Of a DNA stretch of 64,000 nucleotides, positions 8,752 to 34,396 are shown piece by piece; the first letter of the stretch is position 1; every line of letters begins with the position of its first letter. Under the pieces are notes generated by a model that was not told where the DNA came from, made no database searches, and saw nothing but the letters and a program-made list of their open reading frames with translations. The stretch is from contig JAVQRO010000007.1 of assembly GCA_033582455.1 (NCBI GenBank), forward strand, positions 12,628 through 76,627. The letters run 5' to 3'. A program made the translations under genes and the position numbers. Source of the stretch: Thermomicrobium sp. Lineage in GTDB: Bacteria > Chloroflexota > Chloroflexia > Thermomicrobiales > Thermomicrobiaceae.

Positions 8752-8781
8752 TTGACGAAGAGCGTCCAGTCCTGCTAGGCT
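8752..8781 (+). promoter_or_regulatory. Candidate sigma70-type promoter of the leu leader
   Basis: TTGACG (8752-8757), 18-nt spacer, TG-n extended -10 TAGGCT (8776-8781), immediately before T-box stem I. Confidence 0.55.
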
Positions 8782-8787
8782 TATCAG

Positions 8788-9023
8788 CAAAGGCGCGGAG
8801 GGGAAGTAGTAGCGCGCCGAATCCGATCAGCGAGCCGGGATGCGGTGGGAGCCCGGTCGGTGGTGGTGCGCGAACTCGTCCCTGAGCTGCGTTCGCGAAG
8901 GCAAGTAGCGAGCGCCGGGTGCGCCCGTTAGCGCGCAGCGAGTGGGCGCCGTGCTGCGACGGTGCGGCGACCAAGTAGGGTGGTACCACGGGAACGGCCC
9001 GTCCCTTCGTGGACGGGCCGTTC
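8788..9023 (+). ncRNA. T-box riboswitch, Leu specifier (CUC)
   Basis: AG-box/GNUG-box region CAGCGAGCCGGGATGCGGTGGGAGCCCGG; specifier GAA-CTC (CTC at 8875-8877); T-box AAGTAGGGTGGTACCACG (8973-8990); overlapping 13-bp hairpin 8992-9004/9011-9023; upstream of leuA. Confidence 0.9.
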
Positions 9024-9039
9024 GGTGTTGCAGGGAACA

Positions 9040-9126
9040 GTGACGGTGCACGAAATCTCGAGTCTGCTCCGACTCTCCCTTAGTCGGCCCCGAGGAGGGG
9101 CCAACGAGGACACGGGCCGGTCGTGA
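9040..9126 (+). CDS. Putative Leu-rich leader peptide (uORF) MTVHEISSLLRLSLSRPRGGANEDTGRS
   Basis: GTG at 9040 preceded by CAGGGAACA, TGA at 9124-9126, and four Leu codons within six (CTG CTC CGA CTC TCC CTT, 9064-9081). Not in the ORF track because it is short. Confidence 0.55.
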   Translation: MTVHEISSLLRLSLSRPRGGANEDTGRS

Positions 9127-9208
9127 CGGCTTTGGCCGCTGAGTACACGTCCGGCCTCCCGCATGGGAGGCCACTCGCTTCTCGAGCAGACCGATCCGGA
9201 GGGAGACG

Positions 9209-10747
9209 ATGGGCGAGCGCTTGATCATCTTCGATACGACGCTGCGTGACGGCGAACAATCGCCGGGAGCCACGATGACCGAGGACGAGAAGGTCGAAGT
9301 CGCCCGGCAGCTGGTCAAGCTGGGGGTCGATATCATCGAGGCCGGCTTTCCGGCTGCCTCCCCGGGCGACCTCCGTGCCGTGCAGCGCATCAGTCGTGAG
9401 GTGAAGGGTGTTACCGTCTGCGCATTGGCGCGCGCGAACCAACAGGACATCGACGCGGCGTGGGACGGTGTACGAGAAGCTGAGCAGCCACGCATCCATA
9501 CCTTCATCGCGACGTCCCCGATCCACATGGAGTACAAGCTGCGCAAGACGCCCGAACAAGTCTTGGAGGCTGCCCGGTTCGCCGTCCGCGCTGCCAAGCG
9601 GTACGTGAACGACGTCGAATTTTCGGCCGAGGACGCGACACGCTCCGACTGGGACTTCTTGTGCCGTGTCTTCGCTGCCGCGATCGAGGAAGGCGCGACG
9701 ACGATCAACATCCCTGATACGGTCGGGTATGCCGTTCCGCACGAGTTCGCGGAACTCGTCCGTTACGTCATGGAGCACACGCCCGGGATCGAGAAGGTGA
9801 CGGTGAGCGTGCACTGTCACGACGACTTGGGGTTGGCCACGGCCAACACGTTGGCAGCCATCCGCGTCGGGGCACGCCAGGCCGAAGTGACGATCAACGG
9901 GATCGGGGAGCGTGCAGGGAACACAGCGCTGGAAGAGGTCGTCATGGCCCTCCACGTTCGACGGGACATCTTCGGTGGCATCTTGCCGCGGATCGTCACC
10001 GAGCAGATCGTTCCGAGTTCCAAGCTCGTGCAGCGGATCACCGGCATTCTCGTGCAGCCGAACAAGGCGATCGTCGGTGCGAACGCGTTCGCCCACGAGG
10101 CAGGCATCCATCAGGACGGCATGCTGAAGCATCACCGCACCTACGAGATCATGACGCCACAGTCCGTCGGATGGGAAGCCAGCCGTCTCGTGTTGGGCAA
10201 GCACTCTGGTCGCGCCGGGTTCAGCGCCCGGCTGAAGGAACTCGGATACGGTGACCTCTCGCGGGAGCGGATCGAGGAACTCTACCAACGGTTCATTGAC
10301 CTCTGTGACCGGAAGAAGACGGTCACCGATGCCGACATCGTCGCGATCGTCGAGGACCAACTGGCACAGGTCCCGCAACGCTATACGCTGAAGGGATGGC
10401 GAGCGCACTCTGGGTCGGACGGTCGAGCCGAAGCATGGGTCAAGCTCGACGTCGATGGCGTCGAGCGCGAAGCGTCTGCTTCCGGCAACGGGCAGATCGA
10501 TGCGTTGTTCAAGGCGATCGATCGGCTCGTCGGTCGCCATTGCGAGCTGGAAGCGTTCCACGTCGACGCCGTGAGCCCTGGAGAAGACGCCCAGGGACAG
10601 GTGACGGTCCATCTGCGCTGCGGAACGCAGGTCTATAATGGCCGCGGCGTCGCCACCGACGTCATCGAGGCGAGCATCCGCGCCTATCTCATGGCCCTGA
10701 ATCGTGCCGTCTTGACGACACCTGCTGCAGTCAGTGGAGGTGAGTGA
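9209..10747 (+). CDS. leuA: 2-isopropylmalate synthase
   Basis: IFDTTLRDGEQSPG, HCHDDLGLA, GIGERAGN, HEAGIHQDG; C-terminal regulatory domain. Confidence 0.97.
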   Translation: MGERLIIFDTTLRDGEQSPGATMTEDEKVEVARQLVKLGVDIIEAGFPAASPGDLRAVQRISREVKGVTVCALARANQQDIDAAWDGVREAEQPRIHTFIATSPIHMEYKLRKTPEQVLEAARFAVRAAKRYVNDVEFSAEDATRSDWDFLCRVFAAAIEEGATTINIPDTVGYAVPHEFAELVRYVMEHTPGIEKVTVSVHCHDDLGLATANTLAAIRVGARQAEVTINGIGERAGNTALEEVVMALHVRRDIFGGILPRIVTEQIVPSSKLVQRITGILVQPNKAIVGANAFAHEAGIHQDGMLKHHRTYEIMTPQSVGWEASRLVLGKHSGRAGFSARLKELGYGDLSRERIEELYQRFIDLCDRKKTVTDADIVAIVEDQLAQVPQRYTLKGWRAHSGSDGRAEAWVKLDVDGVEREASASGNGQIDALFKAIDRLVGRHCELEAFHVDAVSPGEDAQGQVTVHLRCGTQVYNGRGVATDVIEASIRAYLMALNRAVLTTPAAVSGGE

Positions 10748-10753
10748 CCAGCC

Positions 10754-12013
10754 ATGGGTATGACGATGGCCGAAAAGATCCTGGCCCGGGCCGCGGGACG
10801 CCGCCGGGTCGAGCCAGGCGAGATCGTGGAAGTCGCAGTCGACCTGGTGATGACGAACGACATCACCGCACCCCTCTCGATCGCAGAATTCAAGAAGCTC
10901 GGCGTCGATCGCGTCTTCGATCCCAAGAAGGTCGTCTTCGTCCCGGATCACTTCGTCCCGGCCAAGGACATCAAGGCGGCCGAACAATCGAAGATCATGC
11001 GCGAGTTCGCTCTCGCACAGGGCGCGATCTACTTCGAGATCGGCCGCGCCGGCATCGAGCATGTCGTACTGCCGGAGAACGGTCTGACCCGCCCCGGCAT
11101 GGTGATCATCGGAGCCGACTCCCACACCTGCACGTACGGCGCATTCAACGCCTTCGCGACGGGCATGGGCTCGACCGACATCGCCGCCGCGATGGCGACC
11201 GGTACGACCTGGATGCGCGTTCCCCAGACGATCAAGTTCGTCTACACCGGGACGCTCCCCCCATTCGTCACCGGGAAGGACTTGATCCTCTACACCATCG
11301 GGCAGATCGGCGTGGACGGCGCCCTCTACGCCTGCATGGAGTTCACCGGTCCGGTGATCGACGAACTGCCGATGGACGACCGGATCACGATGGCGAACAT
11401 GGCCATCGAGGCCGGAGCGAAGACCGGGATGTTCGCGTGCGACGACAAGACGCGCGAGTGGCTGGCCAAGGTCACGAACGAACCCTATGAACCGGTCGAC
11501 AGCGATCCTGACGCGCACTACGCGCAGGTGATCGAGCTCGACGTGTCACACTTGCGCCCCCTCGTCGCACTGCCGCACCTGCCGTCGAACGTGCGACCAG
11601 CCGACGAAGTTCGCGATCTGCCGATCGATCAGGTCGTCATCGGCTCCTGCACCAACGGCCGGCTCAGCGACCTACGGATCGCCGCCGAGATCCTCAAGGG
11701 TCGTCAGGTCCACCCACACGTACGCTGCATCGTGATTCCCGGCAGTCAGGAGGTCGCCAAACAGGCAACGCGCGAGGGACTCGTCGACATCTTCCTCGAG
11801 GCGGGCGCAGTCTTCTCGGTCTCGACCTGCGGCCCCTGCCTGGGTGGCTACATGGGCGTCTTGGCCAAGGGCGAGCGCTGCGTCTCGACCACCAACCGCA
11901 ACTTCCGCGGCCGCATGGGGCACCGCGAGTCGGAGGTCATTCTGGCCAGCCCAGCGGTCGCCGCAGCGAGTGCGGTTCTCGGCCGCGTCGCCTCACCGTT
12001 CGAATTGAACTGA
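10754..12013 (+). CDS. leuC: 3-isopropylmalate dehydratase large subunit
   Basis: GADSHTCTYGA, IGSCTNGR, CGPCLGG Fe-S motifs, STTNRNFRGRMG. Confidence 0.97.
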   Translation: MGMTMAEKILARAAGRRRVEPGEIVEVAVDLVMTNDITAPLSIAEFKKLGVDRVFDPKKVVFVPDHFVPAKDIKAAEQSKIMREFALAQGAIYFEIGRAGIEHVVLPENGLTRPGMVIIGADSHTCTYGAFNAFATGMGSTDIAAAMATGTTWMRVPQTIKFVYTGTLPPFVTGKDLILYTIGQIGVDGALYACMEFTGPVIDELPMDDRITMANMAIEAGAKTGMFACDDKTREWLAKVTNEPYEPVDSDPDAHYAQVIELDVSHLRPLVALPHLPSNVRPADEVRDLPIDQVVIGSCTNGRLSDLRIAAEILKGRQVHPHVRCIVIPGSQEVAKQATREGLVDIFLEAGAVFSVSTCGPCLGGYMGVLAKGERCVSTTNRNFRGRMGHRESEVILASPAVAAASAVLGRVASPFELN

Positions 12014-12016
12014 CCG

Positions 12017-12047
12017 TCCGCGTGGCGGGACACACCCGCCACGCGGA
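12017..12047 (+). other. Perfect 13-bp GC-rich hairpin between leuC and leuD
   Basis: TCCGCGTGGCGGG / ACACA / CCCGCCACGCGGA; no U-tract. Confidence 0.7.
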
Positions 12048-12092
12048 TCCGATCCCTGCCGTCGACAGGTCGATAGGAGGAGGGCAGAAGCC

Positions 12093-12611
12093 GTGCCGAT
12101 GCGCGGGCGCGTCTGGAAGTTCGGGGACAACATCGACACTGACGTCATCATTCCGGCTCGCTACCTGGTGACGATCGATCCACAGGAATTGGCACAGCAC
12201 GTCATGGAGGACATCGATCCGGAGTTCGCCTCCAAGGTGCGCCCGGGCGACATCATCGTCGCGGGGCGGAACTTCGGCTGCGGTTCGTCCCGCGAACACG
12301 CACCGATCGCGATCAAAGCTGCCGGGGTCCAGGCCGTCGTCGCCGAATCGTTCGCTCGCATCTTCTTCCGCAACGCCATCAATATCGGACTACCGGTGGT
12401 CGAGGCTCCCGAGGCAGTGCGCGAAACCGAGACCGGAGACGAACTGGAAATCGACACGGAACGCGGTGTCGTCCGCAACCTGCGCACCGGCAAGACGTAC
12501 AAGGCGACGCAATACGACGAGTTCATCCAACACATCATCCGCGCCGGAGGCCTCCTGAATGCGGTCCGCGAGCGGATCGAGGCCCGCAAAGCAGCGGAGG
12601 CGAACCGGTGA
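12093..12611 (+). CDS. leuD: 3-isopropylmalate dehydratase small subunit
   Basis: GDNIDTDVIIPA, GRNFGCGSSREHAP, SFARIFFRN. Confidence 0.97.
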   Translation: MPMRGRVWKFGDNIDTDVIIPARYLVTIDPQELAQHVMEDIDPEFASKVRPGDIIVAGRNFGCGSSREHAPIAIKAAGVQAVVAESFARIFFRNAINIGLPVVEAPEAVRETETGDELEIDTERGVVRNLRTGKTYKATQYDEFIQHIIRAGGLLNAVRERIEARKAAEANR

Positions 12612-13729
12612 GCGAGGTGCGCGTCCTCTTGTTGCCCGGTGACGGGATCGGACCGGAGGTCGTCGCAGCAGCACAACGGGTGCTCGAGGCCGTCGGGCTC
12701 CACTGCGGGTACCGGTTCCACTTCGCGGAGGACCTCGTCGGTGGCTCGGCCATCGATGCCTACGGGACACCGCTCCGCGACGAGACGGTCGAGCTGGCGC
12801 ACCAGATGGACGCCGTCTTTCTCGGCGCGGTCGGCGGTCCGCAGTGGGATCACCTTCCGAAGACGACTCGTCCGGAAGCTGGGCTCCTCCGGCTGCGCAA
12901 GGAACTCGGCCTGTTCGCCAATCTACGCCCCGTCCGCGTGTTCGATGCGCTCGCGGACGCCACCCCGCTCAAGCCTGAGGTGGTGCGCGGCGTCGATCTG
13001 ATCGTCGTCCGCGAACTCACCGGCGGGCTCTACTTCGGACACCCCTCGGAACTCCGCCGTGAACCCGGAGGCCGTTGGGCGGTCGACACGCTCCCCTACC
13101 GCGAGGAAGAGATTGCGCGGATCGTCGATCTCGCCTTTCAGTTGGCCCGATCCCGGCGCCGCAAGGTGACCAGCGTCGACAAGGCGAACGTGCTCAACAC
13201 CTCGGCGCTCTGGCGTGAGGTCGCGAGTGAAGTCGGCGCCCGCTACCAGGACGTCACGCTCGAACACCAGCTGGTCGATTCCTGCGCTATGCGCTTGATC
13301 GCGCGCCCGCGGGACTTCGACGTGCTCGTCATGGAAAACCTCTTCGGGGACATCCTCAGCGACGAGGCTGCCGTCCTCGCTGGTTCGCTGGGCATGCTCC
13401 CTTCGGCGAGCCTCCATGGACGACCACCGGAACGCGCCGGTTCCCCCGCGATCCGCTTCGGGCTCTACGAACCAGTCCACGGCTCCGCGCCCGACATCGC
13501 CGGGCGGGGAATCGCGAATCCGATCGGCGCGATTCTGAGTGCGGCGATGCTCCTCCGCTGGACGCTCGGGGACGAACGAGCAGCAGCGGCTGTCGAGCAG
13601 GCAGTCGATGCGACGCTGGCTGCCGGTGCACGCACGGCCGACCTCGTGCGGTCCGGTGAGCTGCCCCTGACCACCGAGCAGTTCACGGACCGCGTGCTGG
13701 AACACCTCGGCGCAGTCCTCGCTGGCTGA
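12608..13729 (+). CDS. leuB: 3-isopropylmalate dehydrogenase
   Basis: LPGDGIGPEV, RELTGGLYFG, DKANVL, NLFGDILSDEA, EPVHGSAPDIAG. Confidence 0.97.
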   Translation: MSEVRVLLLPGDGIGPEVVAAAQRVLEAVGLHCGYRFHFAEDLVGGSAIDAYGTPLRDETVELAHQMDAVFLGAVGGPQWDHLPKTTRPEAGLLRLRKELGLFANLRPVRVFDALADATPLKPEVVRGVDLIVVRELTGGLYFGHPSELRREPGGRWAVDTLPYREEEIARIVDLAFQLARSRRRKVTSVDKANVLNTSALWREVASEVGARYQDVTLEHQLVDSCAMRLIARPRDFDVLVMENLFGDILSDEAAVLAGSLGMLPSASLHGRPPERAGSPAIRFGLYEPVHGSAPDIAGRGIANPIGAILSAAMLLRWTLGDERAAAAVEQAVDATLAAGARTADLVRSGELPLTTEQFTDRVLEHLGAVLAG

Positions 13730-33649: not shown

Positions 33650-34396
33650 GTGGGAGACGAGCGACGGGTGCTCGTGGTCGTTGCGCACCCGGACGACATG
33701 GAGATCGGGTGTGGGGGAACGGTCGCCCGCTGGGTCGACGAGGGTTGGACGGTCGCCCTCGTCGTCGTGACGGATGGAGGCGGCGGCGGTCCTGACGACG
33801 CCGAGGACGTCAGCCCAGAGGCACGGCGACGAATCAGCGAGATCCGCAAGGCGGAGCAGCACGAGGGAGCGCGTATTCTCGGTGTGCAATCCGTCGCATT
33901 CCTCGATTACCCGGATGGTCGACTCGAACCGACCTTGGACCTGCGGCGTGACCTCGTCCGCGTCATCCGACACTTTCGACCCCAGATCTTGGTCATCCCG
34001 TCACCGGATCGGAACTGGTCACCGGGATACCAGGTCGGGCGCTATCACCCGGACCACCTGGCGGTCGGGCAAGCGGCGCTCGCGGCGGTCTATCCGGCGG
34101 CTGGGAACGCGTGGGACTTCCCGGAACTCCTCGCGGAAGGACTTCGCCCGCATCACGTGCAAGAGATCTGGGTCATCAACGCCCCGGTCCTGAACCACGC
34201 TGTGGACATCACGACGACGATCGAACGGAAGCTCGAGGCACTCAAGGCCCACCGGAGCCAGTTCGGTGAGCGCCTCGCCCTCTTGGAACGCTGGATCCGG
34301 CAAGCCGCGATGGAACGAGGTGTCCGACACGGGATGCACTTCGCGGAGGAGTTCCATCGGATCCGCGTCCGGGAACCGTTCCCGTTCCGACGGTGA
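33650..34396 (+). CDS. PIG-L/LmbE family deacetylase
   Basis: AHPDDMEIGCGGT, RKAEQ, YPDG, HPDH metal-binding motifs. Confidence 0.92.
   Translation: MGDERRVLVVVAHPDDMEIGCGGTVARWVDEGWTVALVVVTDGGGGGPDDAEDVSPEARRRISEIRKAEQHEGARILGVQSVAFLDYPDGRLEPTLDLRRDLVRVIRHFRPQILVIPSPDRNWSPGYQVGRYHPDHLAVGQAALAAVYPAAGNAWDFPELLAEGLRPHHVQEIWVINAPVLNHAVDITTTIERKLEALKAHRSQFGERLALLERWIRQAAMERGVRHGMHFAEEFHRIRVREPFPFRR

Follow-up and report, generated by a model that had tools for sequence, protein, structure and literature searches.

The stretch of DNA analysed here, referred to as the window, comprises 64,000 nucleotides of a Thermomicrobium sp. genome (contig JAVQRO010000007.1 of assembly GCA_033582455.1; 2.1 Mb, 65% GC, 64 contigs) and carries the leucine operon leuACDB. 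The subject of this work is the leader of this operon, in which a leucine T-box is followed, ahead of leuA, by a short upstream open reading frame (uORF) with clustered leucine codons and by a second candidate terminator. This arrangement points to two leucine sensors acting one after the other on the same transcript. The features of the leader and of the operon, in window coordinates, are the following.

8752-8781, + strand: putative promoter read from the sequence just 5' of the T-box, with the hexamers TTGACG (8752-8757) and TAGGCT (8776-8781) separated by an 18-nt spacer
8787-9009, + strand: T-box leader (RF00230), Stem I with specifier loop and T-box sequence
8993-9022, + strand: T-box terminator hairpin of 12 bp (8993-9004 with 9011-9022), loop CUUCGU, tail CGGUGUUGC, a weak U-tract
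9032-9036, + strand: Shine-Dalgarno (SD)-like sequence AGGGA before the uORF
9040-9126, + strand: leader-peptide uORF of 28 codons, from GTG at 9040 to TGA at 9124-9126, product MTVHEISSLLRLSLSRPRGGANEDTGRS
9064-9081, + strand: putative regulatory Leu codons CTG CTC CGA CTC TCC CTT (4 Leu in 6 codons)
9086-9102, + strand: hairpin B, GGCCCC-GAGGA-GGGGCC, inside the uORF and 4 nt after the CUU codon
9111-9120, + strand: putative antiterminator strand 2', CACGGGCCGG, of which GGCCGG (9115-9120) pairs with CCGGCC (9151-9156); it ends one codon (3 nt) before the UGA
9151-9172, + strand: hairpin 2, the homologue of terminator 2, stem 9153-9160 with 9165-9172, GGCCTCCC-GCAT-GGGAGGCC, loop GCAU, tail ACUCGCUUCUCG
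9198-9206, + strand: leuA SD region GGAGGGAGA, complementary to 9074-9081
9209-13729, + strand: leuACDB operon (leuA 9209-10747, leuC 10754-12013, leuD 12093-12611, leuB 12608-13729)

The T-box matches RF00230 over its full length (1-219), with 103 bits against a gathering threshold of 93 and E = 1.3e-21. It contains a specifier codon linked to GAA (specifier loop GAA-CUC-G at 8872-8878, with CUC at 8875-8877), the UGGN bulge (UGGU at 8981-8984) and a terminator that overlaps the antiterminator. The GAACUCG specifier is invariant in all 11 related T-boxes that were aligned, and a tRNA-Leu(GAG) is encoded in the source genome. Given that the 12-bp terminator hairpin reaches 9022, the T-box element ends at 9023, and leuA begins 185 nt further on, as had been described in the original prediction, a reading of the sequence made without database searches. 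The homologous T-box terminator hairpins of lower-GC relatives are followed by UUUUUUG, and tails about as weak as that of leuA are found behind the T-box terminators of ileS and thrS in the source genome.

The start codon of leuA is the ATG at 9209, and its product is identified as 2-isopropylmalate synthase (NCBIfam, 767 bits against a cut-off of 532). The operon proteins carry the Pfam domains HMGL-like and LeuA_dimer, Aconitase, Aconitase_C and Iso_dh. Only three other T-boxes are found in the source genome, those of trpE (UGG; C5:71897-72181), ileS (AUC; C1:301733-301965) and thrS (ACC; C1:328228-328463). Their distance to the start codon is 44-74 nt, compared with 200 nt for leuA, and the extra ~150 nt of the leuA gap gave only chance matches in an Rfam scan at E <= 10. 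A T-box located 5' of leuA with a gap of 185-270 nt is present in nearly all members of the family and in members of one neighbouring family. In the genus of the window, leuS has no T-box.

The putative leader-peptide module between the T-box and leuA

The leuA orthologues of 40 relatives provided the comparison set for the leaders. The uORF was compared in ~35 related leaders, codon usage was tabulated for 30, and the pairing and covariation statistics of the hairpins were obtained from 16 leaders, with 500 shuffles as control. In what follows, region 1 is the Leu-codon segment, 2' is the antiterminator strand, and 3 and 4 are the 5' and 3' arms of hairpin 2. The uORF with its Leu cluster, hairpin B, strand 2' and hairpin 2 are together designated module 2, genera are designated by g and a number, and individual leaders by L and a number.

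The uORF reads GTG(9040) ACG GTG CAC GAA ATC TCG AGT CTG CTC CGA CTC TCC CTT AGT CGG CCC ... TGA(9124-9126), so that the 28 codons with L-L-R-L-S-L at 9064-9081 that had been proposed are indeed there. Its start codon (mostly ATG), frame and stop position are conserved in the ~35 leaders, with lengths of 27-41 codons and two readthrough cases as exceptions (L002 and L010). The N-terminal part of the peptide diverges freely while start, frame and stop persist, and purine-rich SD-like motifs are found 3-9 nt 5' of the start in most genera. Across nine genera of the family, conservation extends to the uORF as such, to its frame and to its Leu codons. The conservation that had been put forward as a check of the original prediction holds for the uORF and its Leu codons, and for the pairing with the leuA SD no covariation is observed (see below).

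Conservation of the Leu codons is not uniform along the cluster. The CUU codon immediately before hairpin B (9079-9081) is invariant, and two positions upstream of it (9073-9075, CUC in the window, codon -2) a Leu codon, generally CUC, stands in 26 of 30 leaders. Codons -5 to -3 are often Leu, there in the form of CUG, UUG, CUU, CUC, CUA or UUA, and synonymous variation spans codons -5 to -2. CUU accounts for 3.8% of the Leu codons of the source genome (CUC for 48%) and for 37% of those in the uORFs. Both CUU and CUC are decoded by tRNA-Leu(GAG), which is the tRNA matching the T-box specifier. The number of Leu residues per leader peptide ranges from 2 to 12, and the peptide of one relative reads MVIGQMAARNLDLLGLFLLSLLRPLGGARGALGGCP. 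A -1 frameshift at CUC UCC CUU before hairpin B was also considered and was ruled out, given that the uORF frame contains no slippery heptamer.

The two hairpins that had been noted at 9086-9102 and 9153-9172 are both conserved across the family. Hairpin B is 98% paired and sequence-invariant in the 16 leaders, and is likely the 1:2 or pause hairpin of an attenuator. Hairpin 2 is 90% paired, with four pairs changed on both sides. Its covariation score is 0.133, compared with 0.084 in shuffles, a value that none of the 500 shuffles reached and that exceeds those of all slid registers. Tails rich in U follow hairpin 2 in g2, g4, g5, g7 and g8 (UUUUAUUUUG, UUUUUGUUUG and similar), with further examples from lower-GC genera being GGUUUCAUUUUUUG, GGUUUUAUUUUG, CGUUUUAUUGUU, CGUUUUUGUUUG and GGAUUUUUUUGG. 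The presence of clear U-tracts behind hairpin 2 in these lower-GC relatives indicates that it is probably an intrinsic terminator. In g1, g3 and g6, hairpin 2 is not followed by a U-tract.

Strand 2' is located 1-7 codons before the uORF stop across the leaders, always just 5' of it, and its sequence is complementary to that of the 5' arm of hairpin 2 and of the adjoining loop. The two sides change together. The pairing between 2' and 3 is GGGAGGC:GCCUCCC in g2, g3 and g5, GGAGAC:GUCUCC in g7, GUUGGGGG:CCCCCAAC in g8, GUUGAGGG:CCCUCAAC in one species of g8, and GCGGGA:UCCCGC in the genus of the window. With the terminator arms read by hand and the duplexes computed with RNAduplex, cognate 2':3 pairs have a mean of -20.8 kcal/mol versus -17.1 kcal/mol for non-cognate pairs, and none of 20000 permutations was as good. 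When one representative per lineage is used, the fraction is 1e-4. By its geometry, a ribosome at the stop codon would cover 2' and one at the Leu codons would leave it free. The predicted arrangement, a mutually exclusive antiterminator and terminator with a strand 2' that a ribosome at the uORF stop could mask, is the geometry of classical attenuation.

A covariance model of module 2, R1, was built and used to search the family and the class. Strong matches were obtained in nearly every genome of the family, in most cases a single one located 5' of leuA, and virtually none in other members of the class.

Homologous and related leaders

A weak extra match of R1 led to a LeuA paralogue, identified as citramalate synthase (TIGR00977, 691 bits against a cut-off of 450). 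Citramalate synthase catalyses the first step of the threonine-independent isoleucine route. Its gene, cimA, is preceded in the source genome and in 12 relatives by a homologous module that has its own promoter-like site and no T-box. In the source genome this module lies outside the window.

Contig C9, ~34051-34290, - strand: cimA leader module with the Ile-rich peptide MTTIAIIAILRPRVAGLSALGRLGSRSE

The cimA module is conserved in g1, g3, g6 and g7, and its scaffold matches that of leuA (...RPRVAG...ALG..., hairpin B, 2', terminator), with GCCCCGC/GCGGGGC as hairpin B. At the positions of the Leu codons of the leuA leader, the cimA leaders carry 4-7 Ile codons (MTTIAIIAILRPRVAG..., ...LAILSIIIAIIRPRVAG..., ...VTIIIEIIEPRVPG...). 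Given that citramalate synthase opens the isoleucine route, the codons of the uORF follow the pathway of the gene downstream. This swap of Leu for Ile codons in the paralogue is the strongest argument for translation of the uORF and for amino-acid sensing, both of which it supports.

With respect to the promoter-like sites, a similar pair, TTGACA-17-TAGGCT, heads the cimA leaders, and TTGAC(G/A) with a 17-18 nt spacer is common to both leaders. The TAG(G/C)CT hexamer of the leuA leader is kept in some members of the genus. A strict consensus scan did not pick up the pair at 8752-8781. An additional promoter in the interval from the T-box to the uORF was ruled out in the genus of the window, where the spacing from the terminator to the uORF start is only 17 nt.

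The composite is not restricted to leuA. In g3, leuS is also preceded by a T-box(CUC), a uORF and a terminator (L065 198-640, G020:C3; L066, G012:C47), with a 14-bp perfect antiterminator match and 2-3 Leu codons in the uORF.

Leaders of other kinds were found in the same searches. In another family of the same order, a leader peptide rich in I/L/V, MSLPHNSIAIISLVLIELPVGSRWCVGGQQSW (MSLPHNSIAIISLVLIELPVG...), stands before ilvB (L068 442-600, G031:C71), with the terminator GGCCUCCCCACAUGGGAGGCUUUUUU followed by a U-tract and without a T-box. The leuA leader of g9 (L020, G018:C313) encodes a peptide with 12 Leu, …MNRLILLASLLLLPAALLLLLISP; no T-box was found within the 457 nt to the contig end, and no clear terminator was seen. 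In the neighbouring family f3, leaders L023 and L025 have a T-box and then a uORF that ends in ...SSLVRLSLI or ...SSSLVRLMLS right at hairpin B, with neither hairpin 2 nor a U-tract after the uORF. In these f3 leaders the wiring may differ, with control perhaps at the level of translation.

Proposed mechanism and alternative explanations

The computational observations comprise the parts of the leader and how they are conserved, the covariation, and the exchange of Leu for Ile codons in the paralogue; from these we infer termination, ribosome stalling and the following regulatory logic. The leuACDB leader would consist of two complete leucine-responsive attenuators in series, a T-box and then a leader-peptide attenuator, a reading to which a probability of about 0.7 is assigned. 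At the first tier, uncharged tRNA-Leu(GAG) would pair with the CUC specifier and with UGGU, and its binding would hold the antiterminator, allowing the RNA polymerase to pass the hairpin at 8993-9022. At the second tier, a ribosome translating the uORF (9040/9046-9126) would meet the Leu codons that immediately precede hairpin B, among them CUC and the rare CUU. If Leu-tRNA is plentiful, it would reach the UGA and cover 2' (9111-9120), hairpin 2 (9153-9172) would form, and transcription would stop. A ribosome stalled at the Leu codons would leave 2' free to pair with 9151-9160 as antiterminator, and leuA would be transcribed. Together, the two tiers would act as an AND gate on leucyl-tRNA charging. 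That two mechanistically different Leu sensors are placed in series had already been suggested, and this part of the original prediction gains support from the conserved uORF and Leu codons, the Ile paralogue and the leuS composite.

Several observations weigh against this interpretation. In the window, the canonical ATG of the uORF, found in eight leaders of sister species, is an ACG (9043-9045), which may be either a genuine difference or a mistake of the assembly; GTG codons of the same frame flank the lost ATG at 9040 and 9046. Strand 2' of the window has diverged (ACGGGCCGG versus GCGGGACGG), and its 2':3 duplex, at -16.8 kcal/mol, is the weakest of the genus. The tail of hairpin 2, ACUCGCUUCUCG, has no U-run in the window and its genus, and a consensus promoter and terminator scan of the window leader found no site. 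Only two Leu codons are found in some leaders, namely those of g7, L016 and one of the leuS copies; the second leuS copy has three. The invariance of hairpin B without covariation could reflect another constraint, such as a bound factor. The minimum-free-energy fold of 9024-9230 has z = 0.03 and is uninformative. When stretches are forced to be unpaired, as by a ribosome at the Leu codons or at the stop, the terminator is mostly kept under any constraint; given that a very stable terminator prevails in most constrained folds, equilibrium folding cannot decide on a kinetic switch. Lastly, in the actinobacterial LEU element, mutations of Leu codons reportedly behave unlike classical attenuation (PMC1262725).

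The alternative that survives best is a translational one, which was also the mechanism originally proposed for the second tier. In this explanation, region 1 (9074-9081) pairs with the leuA SD (9199-9206) and masks it within the basal stem of a compact structure, and a stalled ribosome unmasks it. The pairing that it requires can be read in the sequence. TCTCCCT (9074-9080) can pair with AGGGAGA (9200-9206) and GTCTGCTC (9062-9069) with GAGCAGAC (9184-9191), and the two long-range helices cross, as had been noted. The 7-8 bp complementarity of region 1 is real and forms in the minimum-free-energy fold, the pairing is kept in g1 and g3 (93%) and present in L017, and there is a precedent in the actinobacterial LEU element (PMC1262725). 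Nonetheless, both sides of the helix 9074-9081:9199-9206 are invariant, with no covariation, and the 93% pairing count therefore says nothing. Perfect matches of 8 bp linking the uORF to the 39-nt segment that runs through the leuA ATG (9173-9211) arise in ~10% of dinucleotide shuffles, and at least 3 complementary 7-mers in ~5% of shuffles. The duplex of region 1 with the SD is no better than that formed with shuffled region 1.

The comparison across genera leads to a similar picture. In g6 the pairing is made by different sequences, and the cognate duplex is better than the non-cognate ones (-17.8 versus about -12 kcal/mol). In the other genera no cognate advantage is found; pyrimidine-rich Leu/Ser codons pair about equally well with the SD of any relative. 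The pairing is weak in g7 and g8, even though region 1 is conserved there, and elsewhere outside g1 and g3 it is no better than chance. It is in g1, g3 and g6 that the U-tract behind hairpin 2 is missing, which could suggest that SD masking replaces or supplements termination in the genus of the window. However, the cimA Ile paralogue of this same genus also has no U-tract, and its AU-rich Ile codons are unable to pair with the SD, which means that the lack of a U-tract is no sign of SD control. For the companion helix 9062-9069:9184-9191, only 53% of genus cells are paired, no different from shuffles, and this helix is attributed to chance; an apparent double compensation seen in one sister clade failed across the genus. 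Unmasking of the leuA SD is therefore not retained as the conserved mechanism, the output common to the family being the covarying antiterminator and terminator, with U-tracts in lower-GC relatives. As the main output of the second tier SD masking is unlikely on these comparisons, and it is kept as a possible minor addition.

A further possibility, judged quite unlikely, is that module 2 is a decaying relic in the source genome, with the T-box alone regulating the operon and the gap being a structured 5' untranslated region. It draws on features that are particular to the window, namely the ACG at the conserved ATG, found in the window alone, the 2':3 match that is the weakest in the genus and the missing U-run after hairpin 2. 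In addition, the leuA leader of a sister assembly (L002, G009:C88) has CGA in place of the TGA that ends the uORF, and its hairpin 2 is disrupted, which suggests decay of the second tier in that lineage, or sequence errors. These points are countered by the in-frame GTGs beside the lost ATG, by the intact region 1, hairpin B and hairpin 2 of the window, and by the 109 bits that its module 2 scores with R1. Moreover, the genus as a whole retains the module, and the source genome retains the cimA copy. Within the reading of two attenuators in series, the same features indicate that the second tier may be weaker in the source organism than in its relatives.

A ribosome-independent switch, in which the invariant CUU-N4-GGCCCC...GGGGCC binds a protein or small ligand and the open reading frame is a by-product of GC-rich DNA, is very unlikely: it would account for the invariance of hairpin B and CUU without covariation and for leaders with only 2 Leu codons, open frames are common in DNA of 65-70% GC, and a protein factor was favoured by the authors of the LEU element study (PMC1262725), but it does not explain why ATG, SD-like motif and frame are kept while the N-terminal sequence diverges, why the stop is always just after 2', why the Leu codons vary synonymously, or why the citramalate synthase paralogue swaps Leu for Ile codons on an unchanged scaffold.

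It is possible, although we lean against it, that the T-box and the leader-peptide attenuator evolved as one cassette, of which a complete copy came to stand before leuS in one genus. Such a cassette would read tRNA-Leu(GAG) both uncharged (T-box, CUC) and charged (ribosome, CUC and rare CUU) and would work as a steep, ratio-like switch, with SD masking in high-GC genera as a possible third, translational layer convergent with the LEU element.

Comparison with known systems

The first tier is a full-length Leu T-box with specifier loop, UGGN and terminator, like that of the Bacillus subtilis ilv-leu leader (RF00230). It differs from known T-boxes in that a further element, a ribosome-dependent attenuator, would be placed between it and the gene. 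Known tandems pair a T-box with another T-box or with a guanidine riboswitch (PMC12452182), and T-boxes and leader-peptide attenuators are usually seen as alternatives that replace each other between phyla (PMC2965389). The literature searched contained no account of a leader in which a leader-peptide attenuator comes after a T-box, in agreement with what the original prediction had supposed; a prior mention is possible, as one key T-box survey was not covered.

Module 2 is similar to the classical attenuators of E. coli (leuL, trpL and ilvL) in having a short open reading frame rich in regulatory codons, an antiterminator by the stop codon and a terminator after it, and its geometry resembles that of trpL. 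It differs from the leuL type of E. coli in its interspersed Leu codons (L-L-x-L-x-L), in the invariant rare CUU beside an invariant hairpin, in its position 3' of a T-box and in being confined to one Chloroflexota family, with an Ile-codon paralogue. It is unrelated to them in sequence, the Rfam family Leu_leader (RF00512) having no match between 8990 and 9260 with the threshold relaxed to E <= 10. The leader resembles the actinobacterial LEU element (Seliverstov et al. 2005, PMC1262725) in its position before leuA, in a uORF whose Leu codons include a pyrimidine-rich run able to pair with the leuA SD and in possible crossing helices. The LEU element has neither T-box nor terminator, whereas here the covarying terminator and antiterminator are the conserved core, and covariation lends no support to the SD pairing. 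A conserved pseudoknot of the LEU type was not found, the crossing helix 9062-9069:9184-9191 not being conserved and a terminator homologue being present, unlike in LEU.

The presence of both sensor types in one leader, conserved over a whole Chloroflexota family, offers a natural system for asking what each sensor measures, uncharged tRNA or decoding speed. It also raises the question of why one sensor might not suffice and how serial checkpoints shape the response. The comparisons define a family of putative leader-peptide attenuators of the Thermomicrobium/Sphaerobacter group that had not been catalogued. A common scaffold underlies its Leu versions (leuA and leuS) and its Ile version (citramalate synthase), and the Leu/Ile swap is a clean natural experiment on codon-specific sensing. 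An annotation rule is also gained for the long leuA leaders of genomes of this family.

A parallel in design is the leader of Salmonella mgtA, which was reportedly described by Park et al. in 2010 as combining a Mg2+ riboswitch with the mgtL leader open reading frame. As in the leuA leader, one RNA joins a direct RNA sensor and a translated short open reading frame, and a wider context for such combinations is available (PMC6460261). In mgtA, each sensor responds to a signal of its own (Mg2+ for one, proline/tRNA-Pro for the other), with a single expression platform for both. In the leuA leader, which is a new combination of known parts, both tiers would read the status of leucyl-tRNA, each with its own terminator.

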